Notes: generated from the sequence alone by a model not told the origin. Positions 5,700 to 41,440 are shown, numbered from the stretch's first letter. The stretch is DNA of 64,000 bases from Candidatus Campbellbacteria bacterium GW2011_OD1_34_28 (GCA_001029775.1 CP011215.1:32148-96147); one strand, 5' to 3'. Translations and numbers: made by a program.

Positions 5700-5905
5700 G
5701 GTCCATTTTTCAAAAAATTGTGGGTTGCTTCACTTCGTTCGCAAAGACGGATTTTGCGAAGCAAAATCCGTCACCCTCGTCGTCTTCGCGAGGCGAAGCC
5801 GAAGCGATCCACGTCGTTTTTTTTTGGATTCCTGCCTGTCGTGTTGTTGCTTTTCTTTCAGAAAAGAGGCGGGGCAAATTTCCCGCCTAAATCCTAAACC
5901 CTCTT
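5700..5905. repeat. GC-rich hairpin-dense intergenic repeat element, copy 1
   Basis: Perfect hairpin gacggattttgc-gaa-gcaaaatccgtc, the words cgtcttcgcgag and gaagcgatccacgtcg, and the terminal hairpin ggcggggcaaatttcccgcc followed by taaatcctaa. About 55% GC against a genome of about 33%. Confidence 0.6.
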
Positions 5906-5907
5906 AA

Positions 5908-6603
5908 TTATTTCTGCATCGTAACCACCCAAAATTTTCTTTTGAAAACCCTTCCGTTCACAGTAGAATAACTCTCTGTTTTTTTCATATCCAATATTTT
6001 AAAATATTTTGAATATATTTCTATAAAATTATCTTTTGAAAAAACTCTTTCTATCAAACCTGTTTCTGGCATTATATAAGTATCTTTTTCTCTAGCTGAG
6101 TTGTTTTTCAAAAGAAATTGAGCATTTTTATCTCCATCTTTACACAAAGCTCTCACAAAAAATATTCCGTCTTTTCTCAAAACACGATTTACTTCTGACA
6201 GATAAATTTCTCTTTCTGCTTCATCCAAAGAGTTAGAACTTGTGATATCAATAACCAGATCAAAATATTCATTTTCAAACGAATATTTTTCTCCAATACT
6301 TTGCTTTATATATTTAGCACCAAGATTTCCAGCTCTTGTTTTTGCTGTATCAATCGCAGTTTGAGAGATTTCCATACCAAAAACATCCGCCTGTTTTTCG
6401 GCTAAATAATTTGCATTTCTCCCAGTCCCCGATCCTAAATCCAAAACCCTTAACCCCTCAAAACTTACAGGGACTCGGTCCCTGTAAGTTTTGAGGTATG
6501 TTTTATACCATTTTAAAAATTTCAAAAAAACAGACTGCGGTTTGTCGTGTCCTGTTACCAATTTTGGATTTCTGTATTCTTTTTCCCAAATATCTTTTTG
6601 CAT
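5908..6603 (-). CDS. Class I SAM-dependent methyltransferase
   Basis: 231 aa. The VLDLGSGTGRNANYLAEK motif I is followed by DVFGMEIS and DLVID. Confidence 0.75.
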   Translation of the reverse strand: MQKDIWEKEYRNPKLVTGHDKPQSVFLKFLKWYKTYLKTYRDRVPVSFEGLRVLDLGSGTGRNANYLAEKQADVFGMEISQTAIDTAKTRAGNLGAKYIKQSIGEKYSFENEYFDLVIDITSSNSLDEAEREIYLSEVNRVLRKDGIFFVRALCKDGDKNAQFLLKNNSAREKDTYIMPETGLIERVFSKDNFIEIYSKYFKILDMKKTESYSTVNGRVFKRKFWVVTMQK

Positions 6604-6720
6604 AAAATAAATATACCAATATACGAATTATGCGAATAAAACGAATAAATACAAATATTAGGAATCGTTATTTGTAACGATTTGTATAATTCGTATCATT
6701 CGTATATTAGTATGTTTATC

Positions 6721-7485
6721 TTAAATTTTTGTCAGAATTTCGGGGTCACCATCTGTGATTAAAATAGTGTGCTCAAAATGTGCACTTCTACTGCCATCCG
6801 CAGTTCTAAAAGTATATCCATCTTTATCTAAAACAACATGTTTCTTTCCTTCATTCAACATCGGTTCAAGAGCGAGAACCATTCCCTTTTGCAATTTTGT
6901 CCCTTGTCCTTTCTTGCCAACATTTGCTATGTATGGCTCTTCATGGACATTTTTTCCAACGCCGTGTCCACCCAACTCATCTATTACACCAAATTTAAAA
7001 GGTTTAACAAAATTTTCAATAGCATATCCAATATCGCCTGTCTTGTTTCCTGCCCTAGCCTGTTTAATTCCTTCATACAAAGACTGTTTTGTTACCTCAA
7101 TCAATTTTTTTGCTTCTTTATCTATTTCTCCCACTCCAACCGTCATTGCCATATCGGTAACTAATCCGTTGTGAACAAGCCCTAAATCAATTCCCACAAT
7201 ATCACCTTCTTGTAACACCTTTTCATTACCCGATGAAATGCCGTGCACGACTTCATCGTTTACTGACACACACAAAGTAGCAGGATATGGAAATCTGGCC
7301 CCTTCCGGTTTGTAATGCAAAAAAGCAGGCTTGTCACCGCCTTCTCTAATCAACTGTTCGGCATAATCGTTTAAATCATTAATTACCGCCCCCGGAATAA
7401 CCTTTTTTGCTGTTTCATTCAAAATAAAGGCAAGTCTCTTGCCTCCTTCTCGTAATATATTTATTTCACTTTCTGTATATATCAT
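6721..7485 (-). CDS. map: Methionine aminopeptidase type I
   Basis: Conserved MetAP-I metal-ligand blocks (VVHGI, GDIVGIDLG, HGVGKNVHEEP, LALEPM, HFEHT). The start is moved to MIYTESEINILREG (ATG at 7483-7485) because the longer ORF would read through the upstream terminator hairpin. Confidence 0.88.
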   Translation of the reverse strand: MIYTESEINILREGGKRLAFILNETAKKVIPGAVINDLNDYAEQLIREGGDKPAFLHYKPEGARFPYPATLCVSVNDEVVHGISSGNEKVLQEGDIVGIDLGLVHNGLVTDMAMTVGVGEIDKEAKKLIEVTKQSLYEGIKQARAGNKTGDIGYAIENFVKPFKFGVIDELGGHGVGKNVHEEPYIANVGKKGQGTKLQKGMVLALEPMLNEGKKHVVLDKDGYTFRTADGSRSAHFEHTILITDGDPEILTKI

Positions 7486-7661: not shown

Positions 7662-8255
7662 TTACAATCCGATTTTTTCAATCATTTCTTGATAAACTTG
7701 CTCTATCGTTTGTTCCCCATTTACCTCGACAAATTTATATGTTGAATTATTTTTTAAATATTCAATTGCTGGCAAAACATCTCTATCAAACCAATCCAAT
7801 CTTTTCTTTACCTGTTCCTCATCGTCATCATGTCTTCCCCTGCCCAACAATCTTGCTGTTGACCATTCACGAGAAACATTCATATATACAACAGTTGGAT
7901 CTTCTCTTTTATAAAATCTGATTGCAGAATCGAGTACTTCAGCTTCGTTCAAACGACGAGGTGTCCCGTCCAGAATAAGATGTTCACTGCCTTTCATTTC
8001 CTCAATCAGATCTTTTCCCCAAAGATACACAACCAAAAATTCTGGCTGTAATTCTCCTTTTTCAACAATTTCTCTTGAAAGTCTATTTGAATAACTATCA
8101 TTTTCCCAAAATTTTCTTAAAACATTACCTGTACTAATATAATTGATCCCGATTTCAGGATTTTTTTCTTGTAATTTTTTTGATAACAAATCAATCTGTG
8201 TTCCTTTTCCACAACCAGACCGACCGATAAAAATGTAGGTTTTTTGTGCAGACAT
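7662..8255 (-). CDS. adk: Adenylate kinase family (nucleoside monophosphate kinase)
   Basis: P-loop YIFIGRSGCGKGTQ, ILDGTPRRLNEAEVL, and the LID-region RGRHDDDEEQVKKRL. The start is set at MSAQKTY (ATG at 8253-8255). The 85 upstream codons of the track ORF lie in the GC-rich repeat and are rejected. Confidence 0.78.
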   Translation of the reverse strand: MSAQKTYIFIGRSGCGKGTQIDLLSKKLQEKNPEIGINYISTGNVLRKFWENDSYSNRLSREIVEKGELQPEFLVVYLWGKDLIEEMKGSEHLILDGTPRRLNEAEVLDSAIRFYKREDPTVVYMNVSREWSTARLLGRGRHDDDEEQVKKRLDWFDRDVLPAIEYLKNNSTYKFVEVNGEQTIEQVYQEMIEKIGL

Positions 8256-8289: not shown

Positions 8290-8600
8290 TTATACTTGAT
8301 TTTCTGAAGCCCTGCCTCTTCTCTTCCAGGAAAGAGGCAGGGATTCACGAAGTTATTTTGGATTGCTTTGTCGTTTCGTTTCACTCCACTCCTCACAAAG
8401 ACGACGAAGTTGTCGTCTTTGTGAGGAGCTTGCGACGAAGCAATCCACGCCGTCCGTTCGTCGTTCTGGATCGCTTCGCTACCGCTCGCGAAGACGAAGT
8501 TTTGCTCCACAAAACTTCGTGACGAATTTCCGCAGGAAATTCGTCTTTGCGAGCGAAGCGAAGCAATCCACGTCGTTCATTTGTCTTCGTTACTATCGAC
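8290..8600. repeat. GC-rich hairpin-dense intergenic repeat element, copy 2
   Basis: Hairpins ccctgcctct..agaggcaggg, the 17-bp stem ctcctcacaaagacgac-gaagtt-gtcgtctttgtgaggag, gaagttttg..caaaacttc and gacgaatttcc-gcag-ggaaattcgtc, plus the family words gcgaagcaatccacgtcg and tctttgcgag. Confidence 0.6.
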
Positions 8601-11600
8601 TATAAACTATCGACTGTCGTCGTAGCTGTCGGTTCTACCACAGGATCTGTTGTCGTTGCTGGTTCTGTTGTTACAGCTGTTGAATCTTCAACAAGTACTG
8701 TTCTTGTACTTGTTGAAGTATTTGTTCCATCAAACGCTGTGTAAGTAACTGTGTATTCTCCGGCGATTGTTGTGTCTACTATATCTAGGTCGTGAGTATC
8801 TACTATTAGAGAGTTTCCTTGGTAGTCTACTGCTGTAGCGCCTAGATCAATATAGTTGCTGTTTATTTCTACTACGGCTGGGTTGTTGCCTGTGATTGTT
8901 ATAACTGGTGCGATAGCATTCTGGATTGCTTCGCTATCGTTCGCAGAGACGGAAGATGTGTTAGAAGAAGTATCTGTGTTTTCCAACAAACTTCTCAACT
9001 GATCTTTGTTTATACACACATCATCGATACAAATTTCTTGTCTCGCTTTTATTTTATCCGCAACCAATTCTGTAACCGAAGCCAAAACATTTGAAATTCT
9101 TTCATCCAATGTGTTTATCAATTCTTGCATTGCTTTTACAATCACCGAAGTCAATTTTGGATAATCAAGGTTCATGATAGTACCTTTGTCGTCGTGTCCG
9201 ATGACTTCGGGAATTAACAAGTCAACTTCTTCTGCGATGAATCCGATTTGAGTAGATGATGAATTAATAAAGTCTGATTTCCAATTGAATGATACAGGGC
9301 GTAATTGGAGTACTGTGTCTAGACCGTATGTTAGATCGTTTATGTTTGTTTTGAATCTCTCTGATGATGCTCCACAGGCGGTTGTTGATGTGGCTAGTTC
9401 TCCGCTGGTTGATATACAAGCGTAATAACCTGTTCCGTCGTTGGTTAGACCGGTGAAAGCAGCTGTTCCGTTTACGGAAAGAGTTCTCCATGGGGTGGTG
9501 GTGCCGATGCCGACGTTGCCACCGAAATAGTTCGTGCCACCTTGCGAATATATAGAATAATTATTTGAAGATCCTTTATTTGGAGTTTCTATGTATAGCT
9601 GATATTGATTGGCAAGGACACTGGCGCCTCCATTTTCATAATTATTAAGATAGATATTGTAAGCATTCGTCACATTACCAGACGATCCCCAAACGCCAGA
9701 ACCGGCTTCAGAATATATTCCATAGATATTGCCAATGTTAGCGGTGGATCCGGACATAGCTCCGCCATAAGCTGCTACTTTCATACCGTATATATTTGAT
9801 ATATTTGATACTCCTGCATTTTCCAATCCTGAAGCGGCAAAACCACTTGATTCTGTTCCAATTATAGTTGTCACATCTCCATTTCCATAGAAAGTTCCCT
9901 TGTTAACGGATCCCTTAATTTCTTGGGTATCGCCGGAACCATAAACTCTGGCATCAGAAAATGCTCCATAAACCCAATTAATATTACCATTTCCATCATG
10001 ATATGCTGTTGTTCTAATTCCTTGCATTCCTGAACTAGAAAAATTCGTATTATCTCCAAAAGGTGTTGAAATAGCATTATTAATACCAATACCTTGTCCT
10101 TCTTTTTCAATGCTCAGCTTCCCCAACGGACTCATCGTCCCCACACCCACATTCCCATTATTCAACACAGCAAACAAAGAAGTGGTTGCACTCGCTGTAG
10201 AGCTGGCGATATTGAACAAAGTTGTGTTTGTTTCTCCGTTGTTTGCGTGGATTGATAGTTTTGCAAAAGGTGAGGTGGTGCCGATGCCTATTTTGCCACT
10301 TGATAGAGTCGTTCCCGTTCCATTTATTCCTGTTCCAAAAATTAAGTTTCCAATGTTTAATTGATTTGAGGCGGTGGCAGAAGGAGCATCAACATCGTAA
10401 CCTATAACAAGGTTGTTTGATCCTGTTGTTAAATTATTACCTGCTTGGTATCCAAGAAAAATATTATTTGAACCAGAAACCAATGAACCTGCATTGTATC
10501 CAATACCAACACTCCTAGAAGGTGATCCCCCATAAGCCAAGGAATTTATGCCAATAGCGACATTATAACTTCCTGTACTGTTGTTATATAATACTGAATC
10601 TCCTATTCCAACGTTAGAAGCTCCTGTAGTATTTGAATAAAGTGACATATCTCCCACAGCGCTGTTCAATCCGCCTGTTGTATTTGAAACCAAAGATTCT
10701 GTTCCGAGAGCAATATTATAACCTCCGGAAATATTTGCATACAAAGACATTGATCCGCTTGCTATGTTACGAGAACCACCAATATTTGAAAATAAAGCAT
10801 AAGATCCTGAGGCTATATTATTATTTCCAGTCGTATTTGAATAAAGGGATGTGTATCCGCTGGCAACATTGTTGTATCCTTCGGTATTGAAATGCAAAGA
10901 CTTGTACCCAAAAGAAGCATTGAGATAGCCTGTCGTATTTGAATATAGCGACTGATATCCTACCGCTGCGTTTCTATAACCAGAAGTATTTGAACGCAAT
11001 GACTGATAACCAATACCAACATTATAATTATCTGTTAGATCATCACTTCTTCCAGCCTCATATCCAAAATAAGTAGAACCACCCAAACCGGTTTGAGAAA
11101 CCCTTCCATACACGGATAACTTTGCTCCTGCGTTTTCTGAGGTTGTTGTTCCAATACTAACTCTATTATTTACTGAATCAATAACCAGAGTATCTGTATC
11201 AAAAACAGCACTGTCTATTGTCAAATTTGAAATATTTCCGTTAGTAAAGTTTAATTCTGTTCCTGAAACATTTGAGGTGCTAATGTTTGAATCATAAATT
11301 TCAACCCCACCCAAATTATCTATATCGTTGGTAGCAGAGATCACTTGATATGTGTTGGTGATTTGAGCATTTGTATTTGATGAGAGTTTGTAGATTTCAC
11401 TTCTTAATTCGTTGTTTAGTTTTTGAAGATCTTCCAGTGTGACGCCTGGTGTTTGGATTACTCTTTCTACTACGGTTTCTTTTATTATTTCTCTGATTGG
11501 GTTTGTAACGATGGTGGTGGTCTTTGGGGTTGCGGGAACTGAAGGAACATTTTCCGAGATCTCACCTCTGTCCGCTTCGCTCTCCGAGGAAAGACCTCGG

Positions 11601-11869
11601 GAAATTTCGTCTTCGTTTGTGCTATTGGTTGTTAGCTGTCCACTGTCAGCTGTTTCTTCAGCGGAGCTGAAAAAACCCGAGATTGTTCTGTATACATAAA
11701 CAGCCGTCTTTTCAACGGTGTTCAAATTGGAAATATTTTGAACTTCACTCGCTTCAACTTTTTGTAGAAAAAGTAAATTATCATCATTTGCTAGAAAACC
11801 ACCTCCCAACATCAACATAACGGCAAATACGATAAAAAACTGTTTTATAAATTTATCAATAAGATTCAT
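8600..11869 (-). CDS. Giant secreted surface protein 1 (1089 aa), built like a phage tail fibre. Signal anchor, block shared with giant 2, 14-15-aa xNTAxGYxSLxSNTTG repeat array, intramolecular-chaperone (Peptidase S74) domain, coiled coil, DUF5011-type Ig domain, Thr/Pro-rich tail.
   Basis: N-terminal signal MNLIDKFIKQFFIVFAVMLMLGGG. About 20 tandem repeats of the type NAAVGYQSLYSNTTGYLNASFGYKSL. ASSERFKTNINDLTYGLDTVLQLRPVSFNWKSD...IGFIAEEVDLLIPEVI matches the tailspike C-terminal intramolecular-chaperone consensus. ITITGNNPAVVEINSNYIDLGATAVDYQGNSLIVDT...GEYTVTYTAFDG is DUF5011-like. Confidence 0.8.
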   Translation of the reverse strand: MNLIDKFIKQFFIVFAVMLMLGGGFLANDDNLLFLQKVEASEVQNISNLNTVEKTAVYVYRTISGFFSSAEETADSGQLTTNSTNEDEISRGLSSESEADRGEISENVPSVPATPKTTTIVTNPIREIIKETVVERVIQTPGVTLEDLQKLNNELRSEIYKLSSNTNAQITNTYQVISATNDIDNLGGVEIYDSNISTSNVSGTELNFTNGNISNLTIDSAVFDTDTLVIDSVNNRVSIGTTTSENAGAKLSVYGRVSQTGLGGSTYFGYEAGRSDDLTDNYNVGIGYQSLRSNTSGYRNAAVGYQSLYSNTTGYLNASFGYKSLHFNTEGYNNVASGYTSLYSNTTGNNNIASGSYALFSNIGGSRNIASGSMSLYANISGGYNIALGTESLVSNTTGGLNSAVGDMSLYSNTTGASNVGIGDSVLYNNSTGSYNVAIGINSLAYGGSPSRSVGIGYNAGSLVSGSNNIFLGYQAGNNLTTGSNNLVIGYDVDAPSATASNQLNIGNLIFGTGINGTGTTLSSGKIGIGTTSPFAKLSIHANNGETNTTLFNIASSTASATTSLFAVLNNGNVGVGTMSPLGKLSIEKEGQGIGINNAISTPFGDNTNFSSSGMQGIRTTAYHDGNGNINWVYGAFSDARVYGSGDTQEIKGSVNKGTFYGNGDVTTIIGTESSGFAASGLENAGVSNISNIYGMKVAAYGGAMSGSTANIGNIYGIYSEAGSGVWGSSGNVTNAYNIYLNNYENGGASVLANQYQLYIETPNKGSSNNYSIYSQGGTNYFGGNVGIGTTTPWRTLSVNGTAAFTGLTNDGTGYYACISTSGELATSTTACGASSERFKTNINDLTYGLDTVLQLRPVSFNWKSDFINSSSTQIGFIAEEVDLLIPEVIGHDDKGTIMNLDYPKLTSVIVKAMQELINTLDERISNVLASVTELVADKIKARQEICIDDVCINKDQLRSLLENTDTSSNTSSVSANDSEAIQNAIAPVITITGNNPAVVEINSNYIDLGATAVDYQGNSLIVDTHDLDIVDTTIAGEYTVTYTAFDGTNTSTSTRTVLVEDSTAVTTEPATTTDPVVEPTATTTVDSL

Positions 11870-11947
11870 TAATATTTAAAGTTATTATTTAATATTATTA
11901 TAGTAATAATAACACAATAGATAATGAAAAATATTATAAAGACTGTG

Positions 11948-12035
11948 GATTTCTTTCTATTTATATAGACCTGTCAATTTTTTAACCAAAAAATCTGACA
12001 AAGACTTTAAATATTCATCGTCATAAACAAAGACA
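11948..12035. repeat. Duplicated fragment of the obg 3' end and its downstream sequence
   Basis: About 85 bp (tatatagacctgtcaattttttaaccaaaaaatctgacaaagactttaaatattcatcgtcataaaca) nearly identical to 18905-18990 (the obg stop-codon region). Lies between giant genes 1 and 2. Confidence 0.7.
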
Positions 12036-12076
12036 ACATTCTCACAGAAAAAGAGGATTTTCGTCTGCATTATTCC

Positions 12077-15000
12077 CTATTGACTATCAACTACCGGTTC
12101 CGTCGTTGTAGCTACAGAATCTAGACTATCGACTATTGCCTCTTCAACAAGTACTATTCTCGTACTTGTTGAAGTCAGTGTTCCATCAAACGCTGTGTAA
12201 GTAACTGTGTATTCTCCTGCTGTTGTTGTGTCTACTGTATCTGCGTCTATTGTATCTACTATTAGAGAGTTTCCTTGATAGTCTACTGCTGTAGCGCCTA
12301 GATCAATATAGTTGCTGTTTATTTCTACTACGGCTGGGTTGTTGCCTGTGATTGTTATTGTGGGAGGAGTGGTGTTTGAAGGTTCTGCTGTTGGCTGTTG
12401 GCTGTTGGCTGTATTAGTGTTATCAACACCCTCTAAAGCATTCAATCTAGCTTCCAATTCATTCAATCTATTTTCAAGACCAGAAACTTTTGCGATCAAT
12501 TCTTGTGTCTTGTTCCAAATTTCCTTAATCGCATTTACCAAAACCGAAGTCAGCTTTGGATAATCAAGGTTCATGATAGTACCTTTGTCGTCGTGTCCGA
12601 TAACTTCGGGAATTAACAAGTCAACTTCTTCTGCGATGAATCCGATTTGAGTAGATGATGAATTAATAAAGTCTGATTTCCAGTTGAAAGATACAGGGCG
12701 TAGTTGAAGGACTGTGTCTAGACCGTATGTTAGATCGTTGATGTTTGTTTTAAATCTTTCTGACGATGCTCCACAAGCGGTTGTTGATGTGGCTAGTTCT
12801 CCTGTTCCAGCGTTGGCACAGACATAATAGCCAGTGCCGTTGTTAGCAAGACTTTGAAACGCTACTGTTCCATCTACGGTTAGTTTGTAATTTGGAGTAG
12901 TTGAACCGATTCCGATGTTGCCGGTTGAGATGGTTGTGCCGTTTCCATCTATACCTGTCCCAAAGATTAGATTTCCAATTGTCATTGTGTTATTACTTGT
13001 TGCCGTTGGTGAATCAATGTTGTAACCAATAACTATGTTGTTGTCTCCCGTTGTTAAGGTCTCTCCAGCCTGATAGCCAAGTAATATATTATTATCTCCT
13101 GTCGTTAAATTAACCCCAGATCGATACCCAATAATAACACCCCCCTGATTGTAGGATACTGTGCTAACACCTTGACCGGCTTGATAACCGATCGCAACAG
13201 TAGAAGTAGCTGATCCATTATATCGATTTGCCTGAGTACCTATTGCCACATTTGAAGAACCTGTTCGATTACTACGAAGAGATTCAGACCCAATTGAAGT
13301 ATTGTAAGTTCCTGTAGTATTTAAAGACAGCGAATCATATCCGAGAGCGCTATTATAATTTCCTGTGGTGTTATTAGTTAAAGAAAAACCGGCGGCCATA
13401 TTATAAGAACCTGTTGTATTTGCACCCATGCTTAAACCTCCAACGGCTGTATTATAAATTCCTGTTGTATTGACATCCAAGGCACCAGCTCCAACCGCGG
13501 TATTATAATAACCTGTAGTATTGGCTTTCAATGCTTGATAGCCTACAGCAGTATTACTACTACTTGTTGTTGCTAAATAAAGTGCTTCGTAACCCAAAGC
13601 GGTGTTATTTAGAGCACCACTCAACAAAGCGTTTCCTGCTCCAATACCGACAGAAACAGAACGACTGGTTGAAGAGGCAAAAAGTATTTTGCTTCCCCCA
13701 ATAGAATATCCTCCATTTGTTGTATCTGTAGAATTAAATGCTGTTGCAGAAATCGATGAGGTTGCTGTTAAACTATTGACGGTTAAATCACCAGATATCC
13801 ACGCACTACCTTCTACACTCAACTTTCTGAAAGGTGAGGTGGTGCCGATGCCCACATTCCCCTTCAAAGCCGTAGTTGTGATACTGTCATTTCCAAGAAC
13901 AACAGAGTTGCTTCCTACTCCTGTGGCATCGTAACCGATTACAATTTCGTTTTGGTCATTGTCAGCAAGGGCTTTGGTGTTGTAGCCTAAGAATGTATTG
14001 TAGTCTCCTGTTGTGTTACCTGTTGAGCCGTTGGCAATGTAGCGACCTGCATTGTATCCAAAGGCTATATTATAATGACCTGTGGAGTTAGCATAGAGAG
14101 AAGAATAACCAACTGCAGTGTTATACATACCCGTAGAGTTGGCATAAAGAGAAGTGTACCCACTTGCAGTGTTGTATCTGCCTGAAGTGTTTGAAAAGAG
14201 AGATTCATAACCACTTGCAGTGTTGTGATAACCGGAGGTGTTGGACTGAAGAGAAGAATATCCAATCGCGGTGTTGTGATAACCGGTGTTGTTGTTATAC
14301 ATAGAGCTACCACCATAAGCAGTATTACGGTAACCTGTGGTATTAAGGTATAAAGTAAAAATTCCACTTGCGGTGTTACCATAACCAGTATTATTGGTGA
14401 AAAGAGCATTAACACCATTTGCAGTGTTAAAGTAACCTAGAGTATTTGCATAAAGAGCACGGTAACCTGTTGCGGTGTTATAACTGCCATGACTTGCGCT
14501 TGTCGCCGTGCTACCCATCGTAAGATTTCCCGCTTCTTCTCCCACAAAAGTATTCTGTCCTGTTGTCGTCACAGTTCCGTTGTTTCCATAATTGAAATTA
14601 TGAATGAAACTTGTTCCGTTTTTTGAGATTACCCCGTATTGATTTGTATTAGTGGTGTTGTCCAAATTCAAATTACCTTGATAGATATCGAGTTTTGCAG
14701 AAGGAGTCATTGTTCCTATTCCTGTATACCCAGAAGGGCCAGCAAAAAAAGAAATGAAATCTTGAACTCCATCGTTTGTTCCTATTAAAACACTATTGGC
14801 AATATTATTATTTAAAGAACCTCCTCCTGATCCACTATAGCCAAAACCTATAGTAATTGATTTCGTCGCCGAAGCCTTCGCTGTGCCTCCTAAAACAACT
14901 GAATACTGACCGGCAGCTGTTGCCCCTCCTTTTCCAAAAACAGAAGAATACTGCCCACTAGCAATACCTGAACCAACAACAATAGACCCTTCACCTGTTG

Positions 15001-18000
15001 CACTACTACTTTCTCCTAATGCTATGGATTTCCATCCACTTGCAGAACCATTAATCATGGAAACATTAACGCCACCAGAAGAGTTAACCTTAAATCCATT
15101 AGACACTTCTAGTTTGGCTGTCGGACTCGCCGTCCCAATGCCCACATTCCCCGTACTCCTATCCACCACCAATTTGTTTGTTCCCACAGCAAAACCACCA
15201 GCAAAAGTAGAAGTTGCTGTTGTTGAAGTTGCGTTGAAATAGTCGGCAACGACATCTCCGACAACGGAAAGTTTTGCGAAAGGTGAGGTGGTGCCGATGC
15301 CGACATTTCCTCCTAAAAACACCCCTGCATAATTGTTGATTGCTCCTGTAGAAGCATTCACCAATAACCCGTAGGCATTTGTTACTACGGCTTGGCTTGT
15401 GCTCACTGGTTTAGTTGGCACAAGAATACTATAAGCATTTGTAATAGAAACATTTGCACTTGTGCTTTTCCAAGGCCATGCGGTGACTAAACTTGCTGCT
15501 TCTGTAACCACTTGATTTGCAGTAGTGCTATACAGTTGCATATTACCCAATTTAGTTCCGTATATTGTATCGTAAGTCGTTGGATCAGAACCAGATAGAG
15601 TTACAAGATGATCACGCAATGTTATTCCCGTAACGCCCGAAGATGTCAATGTGGTGACGGGATTAATATCAAGAAATGATGCAGGGGCGGTAGTATTGAT
15701 TCCTAAATATCCAGATGAATTTATTCTTGCTCTTTCAAATGTATTAGCTGAACTACTTGTTGTCCAAAAACTAAGGTATCCCTGTGCATTTCCACCGGTC
15801 GAATTTTCCTTTGCTCCTTTTATTGAACCAAAAGTCCAAAAACCAGTTGAACCGGAGTATACACCACCCAATCCGATGCTTCCCCCTTTATTAATCGCGT
15901 TTGTATCAGTAGACATTACAAGCATATTACCGGCATATTGGTCATTGCTACCCAATACTAAATCGCTTCCACGTATATCAAGCGTACGCTGTGGGTTTAT
16001 CGTACCAAGGCCCACAACAGGTGTCGCGAGGTTAATATTTGAAGTCAAGCCATTAACAACCAATCCTGAAAACTGAGGAGAATCAGTCGTTCGCAGACTC
16101 TGGCTCAATGAGACATTGCCACCACTAATTGAGAGATTTCTGACAGTTTCATTTTTAATCCAAGTGGTCCCTATATATATTGAATTTGCTAAAGCAATAT
16201 ACCCGGTCGGAGTTAGATGCAAATAATCAGCGAGAGCATACGAGGCAAGAAGGGTGTCAGGATTGGTTGGATCTTCGAGCGCAGAATAAGCATCTATCCT
16301 ATAGTCAACATCGGATGCCATGTTAAGTATCCAATTATTAACATCTTCTAAAACTACCTGACGAGCTTCCGTCCATGAAGTGCTAGTTTTAAACGGAGTA
16401 ATCGTAACAGCCACAACCTTAGATCCGTTGGCGTTAGCCGCAGTGTACATAGCTTGTAAATTACTTTCAATAGTGGCGGCAGATGCGTTTGCTGCTATAT
16501 CATTTATACCTCCCAGGATAATTACATATTCAGCATCGTCAACTACTACATCACCAGAAAAACGCGCTGCCATTTGTGTAGTAGTATTGCCTCCAACGCC
16601 TTTGCTATTCACATTCCATAATGCCCCCAGTAAATCAGCCAATGCACTTCCATAGTTTGTTAAGCTATCACCTATAGCATATACTTGATGAGTTTGAAGA
16701 ATGTTCACTTTATTCAGAGAAATATCTCCGTTTACATCAAACTTCGCTCCCGGACTCTCCGTCCCCACCCCCACATTCCCTGTAGAATAATCAACAACAA
16801 ATTTGTTTGTTCCAACAGCCAAACCTCCTGCAAATGTAGAAGTTGCTGTGGCTGATGTTGCTGTAAAGTAAGGGGCAGAAATTGAACTTGTGGCAGTAAT
16901 TGAATTAGCGGTTAAATCACCACTGATCCACGCATTACCTTCTACACTCAACTTTCTGAAAGGTGAAGTCGTCCCAATCCCAACATTTCCACTTGCTCTC
17001 CAAACATCTGTTCCGTTGGATGTCCAATTACCAACGGCTGAACCTGATAAAAGATTACCACCCCAGTATAAATCATTGGAGATGTTGTAAAGTCTGTCGG
17101 TTGTGATTGATGGAGCTGATATTGGTGCAAGGTATGTTGCTCCGTTTACTGAAAGAGTATCTGAAGGTGTTGTTGATCCGATGCCTACACGGTTGTTGAT
17201 TGAATCGATGTAAAGAGTGTCTGTGTCAAAGATTGTGTCTCCTGATACGGTAAGAGTGTTTAGAGTGGTGTTGCCTGTTACAGTTAGATTGCCAGAGTAT
17301 GTTCCACTGGTTGCAGAAATAGGGCCACCGTATGTAGAGGTAGCTGTGCCTGTGACAGTTAGGTTTTGAATTGTTCCGTTGGTAAAGCTTAGTTCTGTTC
17401 CTGAGACATTTGAGGAACTGATGTTTGAGTCGGTGATTGTGACACTACCCAGATTGTCGATGTTGTTAGTAGCAGAGATTACTTGGTAGGTGTTGGTGAT
17501 TTGAGCATTTGTATTTGAAGAGAGTTTGTAGATTTCACTTCTCAGTTCGTTGTTTAGTTTTTGAAGATCTTCCAGTGTGATGCCGGATGTTTGGATTACT
17601 CTTTCTACAACAACTTCTTTGATTATTTCTCTGATTGGGTTTGTAACGATGGTGGTGGTCTTTGGAGTTGCGGGAACTGAAGGAACATTTTCCGAGATCT
17701 CGCCTCTGTCCGCTTCGCTCTCCGAGGAAAGACCTCGAGAAATTTCGTCTTCGTTTGTGCTATTGGTTGTTAGCTGTCCGCTGTCAGCTTCGTCAACGCT
17801 ATCAGCTGTTGGCTGTAAGCTATCAGCTTCGTTACTAAACAAATTATTAACAAACTTATACCAAACAATCGCAAACTGTTCCACAGGACTTGCTGTTTCG
17901 TAGACTGCTAAAGCTAGGTTGTTTACACCCGTCTTCGCGAACGAAGTGAAGCGACCTGCCTCGCCGGCAGGCAGGTCCATGTCGTCCGTTTTCTGGATTG

Positions 18001-18541
18001 CTTCGTCATAAACTCCTCGCAAAGACGACGAACCAGAGACAATTTTGTTTTTTAATCCATCTAAATAATCTAAAAAGTCTTGTGTATATGTATCTACTGT
18101 TTTTACATTTTTACTGTCTTTTATTTCTTTGATGGGAGAATTGTCATTGCTATCAAGAATTTGTGTTTTGAACAAATCTCTTTTTTCTGCACCAACTTTG
18201 TATGTTATTTCTTTTGTGTTTTTTACCGCAGAAAAAACAGCCTCCCCTGTTTTGTTGAGTTGGTTTAATATGTCTCCTGAAAAGTAACCTGCTCCGATTA
18301 AGAGAATCGCTAAAACAGCCGTTGACAATGCTCTCACTGGCAAAATCATCGGCTTGTTTGTTTTGTTTTTATATTCAAAAAGTTTTTCTAATTCAACAAA
18401 ATATTCCCCTTCTACCTTTGTAAAATCTATCTTTTCTTCACGGCACAGGTCTTTAATATGTTCTTCATCCAATTCTATGATTTTTGTCGCTTTTTTTGTT
18501 GAAAGATACCTTTTGCCATTTAAAAATATCTCACTTTGCAT
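12077..18541 (-). CDS. Giant surface protein 2 (about 2150 aa). N-terminal HTH-like cytoplasmic segment plus TM anchor, block shared with giant 1, repeat arrays, embedded SGNH/GDSL esterase domain, tail-fibre NTA-GY repeats, Peptidase S74 intramolecular chaperone domain, coiled coil, DUF5011 Ig domain.
   Basis: Track ORF is 12077..18589; the preferred start is MQSEIFLNGKRYLS (18541). TM segment LSTAVLAILLIGAGYF. A 110-aa block (ADSGQLTTNSTNEDEISRGL...NAQITNTYQVISATN) is nearly identical to giant 1. The SGNH motifs are AIGDSLT, GGNTT, GINDI and DYLHLT. The C-terminal 230 aa are nearly identical to giant 1. Confidence 0.8.
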   Translation of the reverse strand: MQSEIFLNGKRYLSTKKATKIIELDEEHIKDLCREEKIDFTKVEGEYFVELEKLFEYKNKTNKPMILPVRALSTAVLAILLIGAGYFSGDILNQLNKTGEAVFSAVKNTKEITYKVGAEKRDLFKTQILDSNDNSPIKEIKDSKNVKTVDTYTQDFLDYLDGLKNKIVSGSSSLRGVYDEAIQKTDDMDLPAGEAGRFTSFAKTGVNNLALAVYETASPVEQFAIVWYKFVNNLFSNEADSLQPTADSVDEADSGQLTTNSTNEDEISRGLSSESEADRGEISENVPSVPATPKTTTIVTNPIREIIKEVVVERVIQTSGITLEDLQKLNNELRSEIYKLSSNTNAQITNTYQVISATNNIDNLGSVTITDSNISSSNVSGTELSFTNGTIQNLTVTGTATSTYGGPISATSGTYSGNLTVTGNTTLNTLTVSGDTIFDTDTLYIDSINNRVGIGSTTPSDTLSVNGATYLAPISAPSITTDRLYNISNDLYWGGNLLSGSAVGNWTSNGTDVWRASGNVGIGTTSPFRKLSVEGNAWISGDLTANSITATSSISAPYFTATSATATSTFAGGLAVGTNKFVVDYSTGNVGVGTESPGAKFDVNGDISLNKVNILQTHQVYAIGDSLTNYGSALADLLGALWNVNSKGVGGNTTTQMAARFSGDVVVDDAEYVIILGGINDIAANASAATIESNLQAMYTAANANGSKVVAVTITPFKTSTSWTEARQVVLEDVNNWILNMASDVDYRIDAYSALEDPTNPDTLLASYALADYLHLTPTGYIALANSIYIGTTWIKNETVRNLSISGGNVSLSQSLRTTDSPQFSGLVVNGLTSNINLATPVVGLGTINPQRTLDIRGSDLVLGSNDQYAGNMLVMSTDTNAINKGGSIGLGGVYSGSTGFWTFGSIKGAKENSTGGNAQGYLSFWTTSSSANTFERARINSSGYLGINTTAPASFLDINPVTTLTSSGVTGITLRDHLVTLSGSDPTTYDTIYGTKLGNMQLYSTTANQVVTEAASLVTAWPWKSTSANVSITNAYSILVPTKPVSTSQAVVTNAYGLLVNASTGAINNYAGVFLGGNVGIGTTSPFAKLSVVGDVVADYFNATSTTATSTFAGGFAVGTNKLVVDRSTGNVGIGTASPTAKLEVSNGFKVNSSGGVNVSMINGSASGWKSIALGESSSATGEGSIVVGSGIASGQYSSVFGKGGATAAGQYSVVLGGTAKASATKSITIGFGYSGSGGGSLNNNIANSVLIGTNDGVQDFISFFAGPSGYTGIGTMTPSAKLDIYQGNLNLDNTTNTNQYGVISKNGTSFIHNFNYGNNGTVTTTGQNTFVGEEAGNLTMGSTATSASHGSYNTATGYRALYANTLGYFNTANGVNALFTNNTGYGNTASGIFTLYLNTTGYRNTAYGGSSMYNNNTGYHNTAIGYSSLQSNTSGYHNTASGYESLFSNTSGRYNTASGYTSLYANSTGMYNTAVGYSSLYANSTGHYNIAFGYNAGRYIANGSTGNTTGDYNTFLGYNTKALADNDQNEIVIGYDATGVGSNSVVLGNDSITTTALKGNVGIGTTSPFRKLSVEGSAWISGDLTVNSLTATSSISATAFNSTDTTNGGYSIGGSKILFASSTSRSVSVGIGAGNALLSGALNNTALGYEALYLATTSSSNTAVGYQALKANTTGYYNTAVGAGALDVNTTGIYNTAVGGLSMGANTTGSYNMAAGFSLTNNTTGNYNSALGYDSLSLNTTGTYNTSIGSESLRSNRTGSSNVAIGTQANRYNGSATSTVAIGYQAGQGVSTVSYNQGGVIIGYRSGVNLTTGDNNILLGYQAGETLTTGDNNIVIGYNIDSPTATSNNTMTIGNLIFGTGIDGNGTTISTGNIGIGSTTPNYKLTVDGTVAFQSLANNGTGYYVCANAGTGELATSTTACGASSERFKTNINDLTYGLDTVLQLRPVSFNWKSDFINSSSTQIGFIAEEVDLLIPEVIGHDDKGTIMNLDYPKLTSVLVNAIKEIWNKTQELIAKVSGLENRLNELEARLNALEGVDNTNTANSQQPTAEPSNTTPPTITITGNNPAVVEINSNYIDLGATAVDYQGNSLIVDTIDADTVDTTTAGEYTVTYTAFDGTLTSTSTRIVLVEEAIVDSLDSVATTTEPVVDSQ
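17925..18045. repeat. GC-rich repeat element, copy 3, embedded in-frame inside giant gene 2
   Basis: cttcgcgaacgaagtgaagcgacctgcctcgccggcaggcaggtc...ggattgcttcg...tcgcaaagacgacgaa shares the gacctgcc..ggcaggtc hairpin and family words with copy 4. It is translated as ...DDMDLPAGEAGRFTSFAKTG... with no stop. Confidence 0.55.
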
Positions 18542-18639
18542 ATTTATCTTTAGCCAAATTATACCAATAATTAAGGCTAATTTAAACAAAAAAGGGTGCG
18601 TAAGTGTTGATAAATAAATTGAAGCTTATAGCTCTATAG

Positions 18640-18895
18640 CACAGACGAAAACGAAGCTGACAGCGGACAGTCAATAGCTAACAGCACGGATGATGTGGAT
18701 TGCTTCGCTACGCTCGCAATGACGACGAAGGTGACGGAATTTCGTTTTGCGAAATTCCGTCTTCGCGAGGAGTGAAGCGACCTGCCTCGCCGACAGGCAG
18801 GTCGTTTCACCTTCGGTTCGCAAAGACGGACAAAGGCGGGAAATTTGCTTCGCAAATTTCCCGCCTAAATTCTAATTTCTAATTTCTAAATTCTC
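18640..18895. repeat. GC-rich hairpin-dense intergenic repeat element, copy 4
   Basis: Hairpins gacggaatttcg-tttt-gcgaaattccgtc and gacctgcct-cgccgac-aggcaggtc, the 12-bp stem ggcgggaaattt..aaatttcccgcc, the words ggattgcttcgc, cttcgcgagg and tcgcaaagacgg, and a tail ctaattt x3. Confidence 0.6.
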
Positions 18896-18899
18896 GTCT

Positions 18900-19874
18900 T
18901 TATTTATATAGCTCTGTCAATTTTTTAACCAAAAAATCTGACAAAGACTTTAAAGATTCATCGTCATAAACAGAAACAGAGACAACATCTTCACAATATT
19001 TTCTCAATTTTTCTTCCGCCTTTTTTGTTGTCTTGCTGTCAACCAAATCAGTCTTTGTCAAAATAATAATCTCGGATTTTTCAGCCAATTCTGGATCAAA
19101 TTTTTTCAATTCATTTTTAATTGTTTTATATGCTTTTACAACATCTTCATTTTCAAGAGAAATACAGTGCAAAAGAAGTTTTGTCCTTTTTATATGTCTT
19201 AAAAACTTGTGTCCCAAACCTTTTCCCTCTGATGCCCCTTCTATAAGCCCCGGAATATCCGCCAAAATATATTTGTACAATTCTCCCAAATTTGGTTCCA
19301 ATGTTGTAAAAGGATAAGCTCCCACTTTTGCATTTGCACGAGTTAATTCGTTAAGCAAAGAAGATTTTCCAGCACTTGGCAAACCGATAAGACCAGCGTC
19401 CGCAATCAATTCTAGCTCAATAAAAAATTCTGCGTCTTCGCCTTTTTTCCCCTCCGTAGATTCTACTGGGCTAGTATTTTTTGAACCCTTAAAATTTTCA
19501 TTTCCCAAACCGCCGTGACCTCCTTTCAAAACCAAAATATTCTCTCCCTCCTTAATCAATTCAAATTTTTCATCAGTTATCAAATTTTTTACAATAGAAC
19601 CAATAGGCAAATCAATAAACAAATCATCACCATTTTTTCCATGCATACTATTTTTCTCTCCATTTCCTCCGTTTTCCGCAGTAAACTTTTTATTTTTTGT
19701 GTAACGAGAAAGAACCTCTATATCTCTAATTGCACGAATATAGACATCGGCACCTTTTCCGCCATTGCCCCCAGCAGGACCCATAAGAGGTTTGTATTTT
19801 TCTCTTCTCCATCTAACAACACCGTCTCCCCCTTTTCCGGCTCTGGCATAAATTTTTAGTTCATCTATTAACAT
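18900..19874 (-). CDS. obg: GTPase Obg/CgtA
   Basis: The Obg fold Gly-rich N-domain (KIYARAGKGGDGVVRWRREKY...GGNGGKGADVYI) followed by a G-domain with GLPSAGKSSLLN, DIPGLIEGA and LTKTDL. The start is chosen at MLIDELKIY (19874); the track ORF extends 12 codons further. Confidence 0.85.
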   Translation of the reverse strand: MLIDELKIYARAGKGGDGVVRWRREKYKPLMGPAGGNGGKGADVYIRAIRDIEVLSRYTKNKKFTAENGGNGEKNSMHGKNGDDLFIDLPIGSIVKNLITDEKFELIKEGENILVLKGGHGGLGNENFKGSKNTSPVESTEGKKGEDAEFFIELELIADAGLIGLPSAGKSSLLNELTRANAKVGAYPFTTLEPNLGELYKYILADIPGLIEGASEGKGLGHKFLRHIKRTKLLLHCISLENEDVVKAYKTIKNELKKFDPELAEKSEIIILTKTDLVDSKTTKKAEEKLRKYCEDVVSVSVYDDESLKSLSDFLVKKLTELYK

Positions 19875-19918: not shown

Positions 19919-21118
19919 TTATTTATATTTAAGAGCAGTCAAAGGATTAAGCCTTGATGCTTTTATAGAAGGGTAAACTCCTGTGAGCAATCCGATTATT
20001 GTTGAAAAGACAATAATGAAGACAACAAACCAAACTGGTTGATAAAACAGGTCCAATGCCCTTCCACCAAAAGTTTTAGCCAAAATATTGACACCCAAGT
20101 TTGCAATTTCTCCTCCCAAATATCCGACAATAAGACCTCCCAAACCTCCCAAAAAACCCATCAAAATAGATTCAAACAAAAAGAGTTGAACAATATCTTT
20201 TCTTGTTATTCCAATAGCTCTCATAATACCGATTTCATTAATACGCTCCAACAAAGCGATTGTCATTGTGTTAAACATTCCAATAGCAGAAACAAGCAAA
20301 GCGATCAAACCAAACAAGGCCAAGATAATTTGGACTATTTTAAATATTTTATTTGCCTGATCAATAGTATCTGACAAAGATGAAACCAAAAATCCTCTTT
20401 CTATAATACTACTCCTGATACTCTCTATGCTTTCGTTATTTATAGACTTGACCTTCAAAAAATCATATTCAGTCAAACCAAGATCACTTATTGTTTTTTC
20501 AGGAATATAAATAAAATTTGTATCCTGACTCTCTACGACACCAACCACTTTGTATGAATCTTCCCTCTTGAATATTTGATCTTCAAAAGAACCATCTTCT
20601 GTTTCTTTTGAGACGAAGATTGTTAAAAATACTTCTCTTCCTATGATTTCTTGCGGTGTCATATCAAAAAGCTGTGCGCCTGCCGAAGAAATTACGACAC
20701 TGTGCTCATTTTCATCTTCAAAAAATTTCCCTTTCATAGGAAGGATTCCGTCCAGACGAAAAAAAGATGGCGTAACAGAATATACAAGTCCGTCTCCTGT
20801 GAATTCACCTATTGTGATGTGTGCAGATAGATTTACAACAGGACTTACTTCTACTACTCCTGTAATAGATCTGATCTCTTCCAGATCTCTTTGTGTTATT
20901 GTTATCAGATCAGTTGATCCCGCAGAAACATCCAAGCTCAAAAGAGAATCTACTGTCGTAATTTGACCCAAAATTACATTTTGAATACCATAACCCAAGG
21001 ACACAAGAAACAACACGGCTCCAATACCGACGCTTACTCCGAGTATGGTAAGAAATGTTCTAAGAGGTCTAGTCTTGAACATTCTTGTTGATAGTGAAAA
21101 TGTATCAATAATTCTCAT
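19919..21118 (-). CDS. ABC transporter permease, FtsX-like (MacB/LolCE family)
   Basis: 399 aa. N-terminal TM, large periplasmic domain, then three C-terminal TM segments containing the FtsX signature region GIMRAIGITRKDIVQLFLFESILMG. Confidence 0.75.
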   Translation of the reverse strand: MRIIDTFSLSTRMFKTRPLRTFLTILGVSVGIGAVLFLVSLGYGIQNVILGQITTVDSLLSLDVSAGSTDLITITQRDLEEIRSITGVVEVSPVVNLSAHITIGEFTGDGLVYSVTPSFFRLDGILPMKGKFFEDENEHSVVISSAGAQLFDMTPQEIIGREVFLTIFVSKETEDGSFEDQIFKREDSYKVVGVVESQDTNFIYIPEKTISDLGLTEYDFLKVKSINNESIESIRSSIIERGFLVSSLSDTIDQANKIFKIVQIILALFGLIALLVSAIGMFNTMTIALLERINEIGIMRAIGITRKDIVQLFLFESILMGFLGGLGGLIVGYLGGEIANLGVNILAKTFGGRALDLFYQPVWFVVFIIVFSTIIGLLTGVYPSIKASRLNPLTALKYK

Positions 21119-21124
21119 AATTTG

Positions 21125-22471
21125 TTAATTCTTGTATTTACCCAAAATTAATAATTCAAATCCTCTAGTCATTTTTTTAGCAGTTCTACTATCCAAACCA
21201 AGTCCTGATTCTTTAATAGGCAAGTCTAATATTTTCTTAAACATTTTAGAGTCGATCTTGTTATCAAGTCTGTCTTTTATAGCATTGTCTAATATTGTCA
21301 ATTGTTGTGATATTTGCAAATCAACGCTAAATGTCTCCAACAAATATTGTCTAATTTGAACCACCTCTTCCAATTCATCAAAGTTTTTATCTTTATTTTT
21401 TTGATCTTCAAGATCTCTAATATTTTTTATTTCATTGATTAAATCAAAAATCTTGTCTGCTATTTTTCTTGCATTTCTCTTATCCATTCCAAGTCCTCCA
21501 TCTTCAACTTCTTTATCCAAATAGTCATAAAAGTTCATCTCGCCTTCTCTTATACCATATTCTAACAACTCTCTGACCTTGGCTTCTATTTTTGAAACAT
21601 CGTCTGCTGTCATACCGATGAGAGCTTCTGTAACAATCTCTTTTGATTTGAAAGGAATAATACTGTTGATTGAATCTAAAATCGAAGGGAACGATCTGGA
21701 CAACAATTCTAATTCTCTAGAAACTGAAATCTGAGGTTTTTGTTCAATTGTTGAGACAACCTTGTCGTTTATTGCTCGGTTTACTTTTGTCTGAATTAAC
21801 ACCCCGTCTTTAATGTGAAAAACTCTGTGGGCATAATCCAAATAAGAAGCGTCGTGAGTAACCAGAATAATTGTCTTCTTTTGTTCATCATTAAGTTGTC
21901 TCAAAAGAGACATAACGTCCGCTGCCGATTTTGAATCGAGGTTACCTACGGGTTCATCCGCCATCAAAATATCTGGATCATTTATTAGAGATCTACAAAC
22001 AGCGACTCTTTGTTGTTGTCCTCCAGAAAGCTCGTTTGGCAATTTGTGAGACTGCAAGCCAACCCCAAATTTGTCTAACAAGTTTTGAGCCTTTTCTTCT
22101 CTCTCTTTAATCTTTGCACCAATGGCAATCTGTGGTAACACAACATTTTTAATAACACTAAGAGAAGCAATCAGATAATATGCCTGAAAAATCATTCCTA
22201 TTTTCTTTTGGTGGAGAGTTTCTATCTCTGATTGTTTAAGTCCGTTCAGTTTTTTATTATCAATATAAACATTTCCCTCGATGTCTGTTTCCAAACCAGA
22301 GATAGAATAAAGCAATGTTGATTTTCCACAACCAGACGGACCAAAGAAAATTATAAATTCTCCTGGAAAAATTTCGAGTGAAATATTTTTCAGTACTTTT
22401 GCTTCATTAGTTTTACCCAAATTATAGGTAACATTTAAATTTTCTACTTTTACAATAGGGTCAATGGACAT
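21125..22471 (-). CDS. ABC transporter ATP-binding protein (MacB/LolD type) with an unusual C-terminal extension of about 220 aa
   Basis: Walker A GPSGCGKST, signature LSGGQQQRVAVCRSL, Walker B ILMADEPVGNLD, H-loop VTHD. The extension has two copies of a motif: EDGGLGMDKRNARKIADKIFDL and KESGLGLDSRTAKKMTRGFELL. Confidence 0.8.
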   Translation of the reverse strand: MSIDPIVKVENLNVTYNLGKTNEAKVLKNISLEIFPGEFIIFFGPSGCGKSTLLYSISGLETDIEGNVYIDNKKLNGLKQSEIETLHQKKIGMIFQAYYLIASLSVIKNVVLPQIAIGAKIKEREEKAQNLLDKFGVGLQSHKLPNELSGGQQQRVAVCRSLINDPDILMADEPVGNLDSKSAADVMSLLRQLNDEQKKTIILVTHDASYLDYAHRVFHIKDGVLIQTKVNRAINDKVVSTIEQKPQISVSRELELLSRSFPSILDSINSIIPFKSKEIVTEALIGMTADDVSKIEAKVRELLEYGIREGEMNFYDYLDKEVEDGGLGMDKRNARKIADKIFDLINEIKNIRDLEDQKNKDKNFDELEEVVQIRQYLLETFSVDLQISQQLTILDNAIKDRLDNKIDSKMFKKILDLPIKESGLGLDSRTAKKMTRGFELLILGKYKN

Positions 22472-22495
22472 AATTAAAATTATTTTATTTAGCTT

Positions 22496-29182: not shown

Positions 29183-29248
29183 GGATTTGTCAAAAACACT
29201 GTGGAAAATTAAACAAAAAATCTAAAAAATTATAGAAATTTTTGCATT

Positions 29249-41204: not shown

Positions 41205-41440
41205 GCTTAAATTTTCTCTCAAAAAATTAAAAGTGCTATCGCTCGCGAAGAGAAACGAGGACATCGTGGATCGCGTCGCTTCGCTCGCGAAGACGAATTT
41301 TCTGAAAGAAAATTCGTTGACGAAGTTGGGCTTTGCCCAACTTTGTCTTTGCGAGCCTTGGCGAAGCAATCCACGTCGTCGTTCGTCTTTGCGAGCCTTG
41401 GCGAAGCAATCCAGTTTCGTAATTCAAAGTTCTTTTATTA
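41205..41440. repeat. GC-rich hairpin-dense intergenic repeat element, copy 5
   Basis: Hairpins gacgaattttct-gaaa-gaaaattcgt and gaagttgggc-tttg-cccaacttt. A tandem direct repeat tcgtctttgcgagccttggcgaagcaatcca x2. The words ctcgcgaag and gcgaagcaatccacgtcg. Confidence 0.6.

Follow-up and report, generated by a model that had tools for sequence, protein, structure and literature searches.

Gene-fragment relics in the form of truncated pseudogenes are known from the junctions of segmental or tandem duplications in bacteria. Foreign DNA can also be added to a genome by homology-facilitated illegitimate recombination, an additive integration in naturally transformable bacteria that is anchored by one homologous flank. 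Integrase-dependent islands and prophages duplicate their att sites, which results in direct repeats of a gene 3' end around the insert while the gene remains intact, and in hypervariable mosaic loci for surface or tail-fiber-like proteins with Peptidase_S74 intramolecular-chaperone C-termini, conserved blocks serve as recombination anchors.

We examined a locus of Candidatus Campbellbacteria bacterium GW2011_OD1_34_28, one of the groundwater Patescibacteria (Paceibacterota, Campbellbacteria-like), whose genome has been assembled many times. The analyzed stretch of DNA (GCA_001029775.1, CP011215.1:32148-96147), in the following referred to as the window, comprises 64,000 nucleotides, and all positions are counted from its first letter. 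Downstream of obg, the gene of the Obg/CgtA GTPase, the window contains two giant genes, B and A, and between them a copy of the obg 3' end, which we refer to as the relic. A search of the literature on the Candidate Phyla Radiation (CPR) for giant or S74 proteins gave nothing specific to this obg-adk locus. The relic is very probably a non-functional scar at a head-to-tail junction, which connects obg codon 294 with a position no more than 30 nt after the stop codon of a giant gene. Truncated relics at duplication or insertion junctions are a known kind of feature, of which this is a new instance in a Patescibacteria genome; it reveals no new mechanism and no new kind of element.

Gene content of the obg-adk locus

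All genes of the locus lie on the minus strand and follow each other, 5' to 3', in the order of Table 1, from the VTT-domain gene to the methyltransferase gene. The assignment of the obg product rests on TIGR02729 (366 bits, with a cutoff of 280) and on the Pfam domains GTP1_OBG and MMR_HSR1, and the adk product is 91% identical at the amino acid level to that of the gene after the single giant gene in L001, the closest relative with the full locus. Comparison with orthologs gave gene starts that are shorter than the longest ORFs: obg begins with ATG 19874, a start common to the related loci L001 and L047, and not with TTG 19910; giant B begins with ATG 18541 and not with TTG 18589, from which the longest ORF would encode 2170 aa; and adk begins with ATG 8255 and not with GTG 8510.

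Table 1. Features of the obg-adk locus in 5' to 3' order of the minus strand, followed by the patches shared between the A and B units
Feature	Position in the window	Strand	Remarks
VTT-domain gene	29249-29875	-	
Giant C	22496-29182	-	fn3 and purple-acid-phosphatase repeats; unrelated to giants A and B
ABC ATPase	21125-22471	-	
FtsX/MacB-type permease	19919-21118	-	
obg (Obg/CgtA GTPase)	18900-19874	-	324 aa from ATG 19874; TIGR02729 and Pfam
Intact obg tail	18900-18995	-	codons 294-324 and TAA; functional counterpart of the relic
Spacer B	18542-18899	-	to ortholog-supported ATG 18541; unrelated to spacer A
Giant B	12077-18541	-	2154 aa from ATG 18541; B-type N-terminus
Linker	12047-12076	-	30 nt, from giant B stop (12077-12079) to relic
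Relic of the obg 3' end	11957-12046	-	83/90 identities
Spacer A	11870-11956	-	87 nt; orthologous to the obg-giant spacer of relatives
Giant A	8600-11869	-	1089 aa; A-type N-terminus; ortholog of the single giant of L001
adk	7662-8255	-	Pfam ADK domain; conserved right flank of the giant-gene locus
map		-	
Methyltransferase gene		-	
Patch 1, N-terminal block	A 11226-11651 / B 17365-17789	-	89.7% (blastn)
Patch 2, Peptidase_S74 block	A 9129-9403 / B 12528-12802	-	93.5% (blastn)
Patch 3, C-terminal Ig-like block	A 8677-8902 / B 12133-12358	-	91.6% (blastn)
Patch 4, relic/obg tail	11958-12046 / 18901-18995	-	87.4% (blastn)

A truncated copy of the obg 3' end

Exact mapping aligned the relic with the intact obg tail, which is coding throughout, at 83 identities in 90 ungapped positions (92.2%). 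The corresponding blastn match comprised 95 columns with one 6-nt gap and had an E-value of 7e-29, and of 1e-29 in the comparison within the window. This gap is an in-frame deletion, as the relic is without one TCTGTT unit of the TCTGTTTCTGTT tandem. The relic consists of 29 codons and a TAG stop codon in place of the TAA of obg, and its encoded tail reads CENVVFVYDDEYLKSLSDFLVKKLTGLYK, compared with CEDVVSVSVYDDESLKSLSDFLVKKLTELYK in the intact protein. The boundary of the homology is the stop codon, so that nothing 3' of obg is included, and at the other end the relic is truncated at codon 294 of 324, with the obg start and the functional domains missing. As it covers only the last 29 codons, after the main motifs of the G domain, it cannot encode a GTPase.

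The local alignment score of 65.5 has to be compared with 9.3 +/- 1.2 (maximum 15.5) in 300 composition-preserving resamples, and the next-best match of the relic across the 64-kb window reached only E=0.05. The resampling and the window-wide blast search thus ruled out chance or AT-rich low-complexity similarity. An initial annotation of the window had already recognized the fragment as a copy of the obg 3' end, which is confirmed by the identities and the single indel, and the low-complexity explanation that it had named as the alternative is not borne out by the blastn comparison it proposed. The match it placed at 11948-12035 and 18905-18990 is real, but these limits need to be corrected to those in Table 1. 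It had described the match as last codons plus downstream sequence, which is right for the codons but not for the downstream part, and its terms "upstream" and "downstream" are valid only in the minus-strand orientation of these genes.

The junction in other assemblies

It is conceivable that an assembler concatenated two strain haplotypes, obg-giant B and obg-giant A, and thereby created the junction. Several assemblies indeed break in the 5' region of giant B, where contigs of four other assemblies end at positions 18275, 18200, 18087, and 17526, which may be due to repeats or population heterogeneity. In addition, a scaffold with a 100% identical obg region (L042) goes from obg into unrelated DNA: it departs at its position 11043, corresponding to window position 18832, after a terminator-like hairpin, and continues with higher-GC DNA and then rpoB/rpoC. 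This departure is either a chimeric join at the repeated hairpin or a structural variant. However, L041 and L099, two contigs that stem from different samples and different assemblers, have an identical 301-nt junction from the end of giant B through linker and relic into spacer A, even though L099 has 5 differences to the window at other positions. The same upstream context was found in all nine of the nine contigs that carry giant A, and the private protein-damaging changes of the relic described below would be unexpected in the live obg of another strain. In view of the identical junction in L041 and L099 and the common context in nine contigs, an assembly artefact is very unlikely. Among these nine contigs, there was no deletion variant between the two obg tails.

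Shared patches and N-terminal types of giants A and B

Pfam searches found Peptidase_S74 and bacterial Ig-like domains at the end of both giants A and B, and in addition a GDSL lipase domain in giant B. By blastn, the A and B units have four collinear same-strand matches of ~87-93.5% identity, and the relic is the outermost of these. The three patches within the giants are mutually closest, with 89-93% identity between A and B versus 79-83% to L001 and 85-87% to L047. In patch 1, A and B are 89.4% identical in the MAFFT alignment, which exceeds the identity to L001 (81-83%) or L047 (85-87%); in patch 2, 93.5% compare with 83% to L001; and in patch 3, 91.6% compare with 79-81%. The A/B patches are also marginally closer to each other than giant B is to the giant gene of L102 (88-91%), which belongs to another Campbellbacteria assembly. 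The DNA between the patches is unalignable, the giants are 32-42% identical at the amino acid level outside the patches, and only ~28% of giant A lies inside them. There is consequently no continuous A/B homology from breakpoint to breakpoint, only the tail and the three patches.

The N-termini of the two proteins, 75 codons in the case of A and ~250 codons in the case of B, differ from each other and represent two old types of the giant gene at this locus. The first 75 residues of giant A are 87% identical to L001 and 85% identical to L047, and over ~800 residues giant A is 58% identical to the giant of L001. A 37-nt inverted repeat with 84% complementarity (17757-17793 and 18651-18687) brackets the promoter-like site and the first ~250 codons of giant B, and one of its arms is the motif coding for ADSGQ...NST at the start of an A/B patch. 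No inverted variant between the repeat arms was present among the fetched contigs.

Spacers, linker, and breakpoints

The two spacers, 87 nt in the case of A and 310 nt in the case of B when counted to the longest-ORF start, are unrelated (42% identity). Spacer A is orthologous to the obg-giant spacers of L001, L047, and L103, with 87.4% identity to that of L001, and the spacer alignments revealed a conserved TATAAT motif that lies in spacer A and outside the relic. In spacer B, GC-rich hairpin elements come after a terminator-like hairpin, and there is also a promoter-like site (18586-18558); when positions 18590-18910, a range that takes in most of spacer B, were folded as RNA, the hairpins were very stable (z=-7.3).

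Such GC-rich hairpins form a family in this genome of ~34% GC (18690-18870, 8380-8580, 17929-18032, 5720-5897, and 41265-41379) and fill spacer B and the spacer between giant A and adk. One cluster is located in frame in the N-terminal region of giant B, where it encodes ...SSLRGVYDEAIQKTDDMDLPAGEAGRF..., and the ortholog of giant B in L100 has a different 94-nt insert at the same spot. The in-frame cluster recalls the in-frame Rickettsia palindromic elements.

One breakpoint of the junction is obg codon 294, and the other lies somewhere in the 30-nt linker after the giant B stop codon. Comparison of the linker with the part of obg that precedes the breakpoint gave no significant similarity (13/17, p~0.12), and neither did comparison with the 3' flank of giant A (p~0.09), a region that is short and variable. 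It also did not match the conserved stop-plus-flank region common to giant A and the L102 giant, and hand alignments were no better.

The locus in related genomes

In L001, whose Obg is 94.5% identical at the amino acid level, the gene order is VTT, obg, one giant gene of 1508 aa, adk, map, and methyltransferase, and the relic is absent. The obg tail, the spacer, and the N-terminus of the giant in L001 align without interruption with relic, spacer A, and giant A (L001 4472-5403 corresponding to window 12046-11142). L047 and L103 likewise have an A-type spacer and an A-type N-terminus after obg. In two relatives with an Obg identity of 72-73% (L048 and L093), a giant gene of at least 2645 aa with a B-type N-terminus directly follows obg, and these N-termini are distant from giant B (38-50% aa identity). 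In the assembly of L100 and L102, there is one B-type giant only, with a length of at least 2814 aa and in parts 88-97% identity to giant B at the nucleotide level, and neither a relic nor an A-type gene comes after it. The stop codon and 3' flank of the L102 giant resemble the flank of giant A and not the linker; the L102 contig begins inside the giant, and its next gene codes for a sortase and is not adk. In L097, obg is followed by gatB, and a giant gene is absent.

A tblastn search with the tail found no second obg tail in the fetched loci outside this same genome, with one copy per relative, and no lineage was found in which a close B-type giant is the sole giant directly behind obg. The donor search with the unique N-terminus of giant B returned only two partial proteins from one assembly, of which one is the only giant at its locus, of the B-type and on a contig that does not include the upstream region, and the other belongs to an unrelated locus, and the search with the N-terminus of giant A returned only obg-adjacent A-type fragments. 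As giant A and the relic keep the spacer, the N-terminus, and the adk flank of the closest relatives, giant B is, judged by this comparison, the extra gene, and giant A occupies the context of the nearest relatives.

In L047, the single giant gene (11072-13590) combines an A-type N-terminus (85% identical to giant A) with a giant B-like body (66% over 440 aa), and this arrangement shows a mosaic exchange between A and B forms. L101 (GCA_003489565.1, DNLU01000004.1) carries a paralog of the giant family at an unrelated locus (6299-7216), next to genes for a glycosyltransferase and a Y1 transposase-like protein. This paralog has a third, short type of N-terminus and two copies of the EQFAV.WY motif.

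Age of the relic and changes at the locus

In an alignment that also included L047 and L103, the tails of the relic, the obg of the window, and L001 form a trichotomy with one informative site per grouping, based on 90 nt only. The relic is 92.2% identical to the obg tail of the window and 87.8% identical to that of L001. The dS values between the window and L001 are 0.19-0.74 for flanking genes and 0.31 for obg. In view of the flanking-gene dS, the 5-6 private changes of the relic are fewer than expected for an origin before the split from L001, and their number is compatible with the local tail divergence (pS 0.15).

Upstream of the locus in the minus-strand orientation, the window is 98-99% identical to L047 and L091 at the nucleotide level as far as ~29340 inside the VTT gene, after which the VTT tail is very divergent. 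In agreement with this, dS between the window and L047 is 0.07-0.08 in two upstream genes and 0.52 in obg. The genes for giant C (2228 aa), the ABC ATPase, and the FtsX/MacB permease between VTT and obg are present only in this lineage, and in all relatives VTT, sometimes together with MYG1, lies directly before obg. The obg gene is itself mosaic: window-specific substitutions stop at nt ~690 (~window 19185), with 29 before and 2 after this point (permutation p~0.03). The alignments suggest that the block 19919-29340 came in by one import with crossovers in VTT and obg, and the polarity of the obg change-point fits an upstream import with giant C better than an import of giant B.

A donor origin of the intact obg 3' end is not supported, as the window-specific substitutions are fewer there and not more numerous, which instead fits the separate upstream import. 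A single import that includes the VTT tail, giant C, the ABC genes, obg, giant B, and the relic was also considered; its left edge is sharp, but the obg change-point argues against it, and it is further disfavored by the relic and spacer A, which are not L047-like. Based on the VTT breakpoint, the jump of dS in obg, and the mosaic giant of L047, imports and exchanges via conserved flanks are thus the normal mode of change at the obg locus. The comparison hints that the obg neighborhood is a recombination hotspot among related lineages.

Does the relic have a function?

The relic differs from the intact tail by ~1.5 synonymous and ~4.5 nonsynonymous changes and by the deletion of two codons, which gives pN 0.065 versus pS 0.085, albeit from tiny counts. 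Five changes are private to the relic and one is private to the intact tail. The changes of the relic include S to F, S to Y, and the loss of two codons at sites where the four intact obg genes do not vary, and from the alignment they look neutral.

An ORF of 37 aa (11957-12070, MQTKILFFCENVV...LYK) covers the relic, and one could therefore ask whether it encodes a small protein, or whether the relic serves as terminator or promoter for giant B or A. The ORF has an ATG and retains its stop codon, its sole indel is in frame, and it shares the frame of giant B with a single TAG between them. Nevertheless, the changes are neutral-looking and nonsynonymous at positions that are invariant in obg, and no gene was called at the relic in the annotations of L041 and L099. 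An Rfam search with the relic had no match at E<=1, neither a terminator-like nor a minus-strand promoter-like site was found in it, the fold of the relic-linker-spacer A transcript was no better than that of shuffled sequences (z=-0.57), and the conserved TATAAT of spacer A sits outside. A functional element is therefore very improbable, and the 37-aa ORF is best treated as spurious. The ORF is separated from giant B by the TAG stop codon and two codons, so that a hypothetical read-through would add an Obg-derived tail to giant B.

Origin of the second obg tail

We infer that two copies of the unit consisting of obg, spacer, and giant gene recombined unequally and illegitimately, which gave rise to the junction. 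A point no more than 30 nt past the stop codon of one giant gene would have been joined to codon 294 of the obg gene in the other copy. The upstream unit would thereby have kept its whole obg, followed by spacer B and giant B, and the downstream unit would have kept the obg tail only, followed by spacer A, giant A, and adk; the relic would then have decayed slowly without function. The giant gene can be pictured as a hypervariable, mosaic gene of a surface protein. As to the partner, the chances are about even that the recombining copies already carried divergent B-type and A-type alleles, which would have been stacked in one step, for example by recombination between chromosomal DNA and DNA from a closely related cell. 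Such a partner is favored by the end of the homology at the stop codon, by the two native-looking types of unit, and by the uptake of homologous DNA at the locus, and stacking is also supported by spacer B and a B-type N-terminus of the kind that follows obg in L048 and L093. On the other hand, the A/B patches (89-93%) and the two obg tails are mutually closest, as predicted by an intragenomic duplication, and stacking would consequently need a very close donor or later gene conversion.

For this reason, a strict tandem duplication of obg tail, spacer, and giant gene by unequal crossing-over between identical sister copies, followed by homologous replacement in one copy, stays a serious rival, although we regard it as less likely than stacking. 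In the obg-proximal copy, B-type sequence would have replaced the spacer, the N-terminus, and the central body, or the reverse would have happened distally, and this second step is plausible as allelic replacement occurs at the locus. The units are head-to-tail and collinear, and the distal unit opens with an obg tail, as expected after such a duplication. However, at least two events would be needed where one suffices, no homology is left in the spacers, the match ends exactly at the stop codon, and just the small fraction of giant A given above lies in shared patches. The linker is in addition unlike the 3' flank of giant A or the L102 giant, which is a weak point as this flank is short and fast-evolving.

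An older pair is quite improbable by comparison: the arrangement of giant B, relic, and giant A would predate the split of L001, L047, and L103, recombination between the obg-tail repeats would have removed giant B from these lineages, and the A/B patches and the obg tails would be kept similar by gene conversion. It is in line with the age of both N-terminal types, with direct repeats of 90-96 nt that are a substrate for precise deletion to the structure of L001, and with the trichotomy of the tails, which does not demonstrate that the relic arose after the local split from L001. Yet the private changes in the 90 nt of the relic fall short of the ~14 or more that this age predicts (from per-lineage dS/2 to L001 of ~0.1-0.37 in flanking genes and ~0.15 for obg), three independent precise losses or one shared loss would be required in addition to ongoing gene conversion, and there was no relic in the other lineages examined and no deletion variant in the population. 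Site-specific insertion of spacer B and giant B as an integrase-mediated island at the obg 3' end, with duplication of the target as attL and attR, would account for obg 3'-end direct repeats around a 6.8-kb insert that the closest relatives lack. This is again hardly credible, as the insert (12047-18899) encodes giant B alone, with no integrase, recombinase, or transposase, and no recombinase adjoins it (the neighbors are the ABC transporter and adk); 8% divergence and an indel separate the two repeats, and the insert has three internal patches in common with the neighboring gene, which is unexpected for an unrelated island.

The preferred illegitimate joining of two obg-giant units agrees with the initial annotation in that the fragment marks the boundary of two head-to-tail giant units and is collinear with three further A/B patches, and the single-copy state expected in related genomes exists in L001. 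However, a copied unit of obg tail, spacer, and giant gene, as proposed there, is not supported as a continuous copy that can still be seen, given the unrelated spacers and the end of the homology at the obg stop codon. Direction and breakpoint of the duplication had been taken as fixed, which holds for the breakpoint at obg codon 294, while the second is defined only within 30 nt. The view that the duplication created giant A is also not supported, as a head-to-tail junction is symmetrical and giant A is the copy in the context of the relatives.

Implications and comparison with known systems

The relic is a marker for the enlargement of a set of giant surface proteins in one Patescibacteria lineage with a reduced genome, with one breakpoint exact to the codon. 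It warns against annotating the 37-aa ORF as a gene, and it explains the tendency of assemblies to break at this locus. A more far-reaching idea, which we consider unlikely, is that in Campbellbacteria-like Patescibacteria the obg 3' end is a recurrent recombination anchor for a hypervariable giant surface-protein island, at which A, B, and other alleles are captured from relatives and can be stacked, and the tail repeats allow precise loss or re-expansion of a cassette. If this were true, the locus would act at the population level as a gain/loss switch that changes which surface proteins an episymbiont has at its disposal, and the GC-rich hairpins of spacer B and giant B could belong to this plasticity.

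Compared with att duplications, the obg locus has the same kind of direct repeats of a gene 3' end around an insert and an intact gene, but it is without a recombinase, its repeats have diverged, and patches of the insert are homologous to the adjacent resident gene. Like hypervariable mosaic surface loci, the giants consist of unalignable repetitive bodies between conserved blocks (N-proximal, S74, and Ig-like), and relatives such as L047 carry differing combinations of blocks. In contrast to phage tail-fiber-like loci, they are chromosomal genes in the obg-adk interval, where two forms have been stacked and not exchanged for one another. The relic resembles the gene relics at bacterial duplication junctions in its truncation to a 3' end, its decay, and its absence from single-copy relatives, with the difference that the A and B units are not near-identical and represent two old allelic types that were maybe stacked. 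With regard to homology-facilitated illegitimate recombination, no microhomology was established at the illegitimate join. The structure at obg nevertheless fits one homologous crossover in obg combined with one illegitimate join, a process by which a foreign unit would be gained and part of the anchor gene would be left behind in duplicate, as found here, and the block of giant C and the ABC genes shows that imports via flanking homology do take place at the obg locus.
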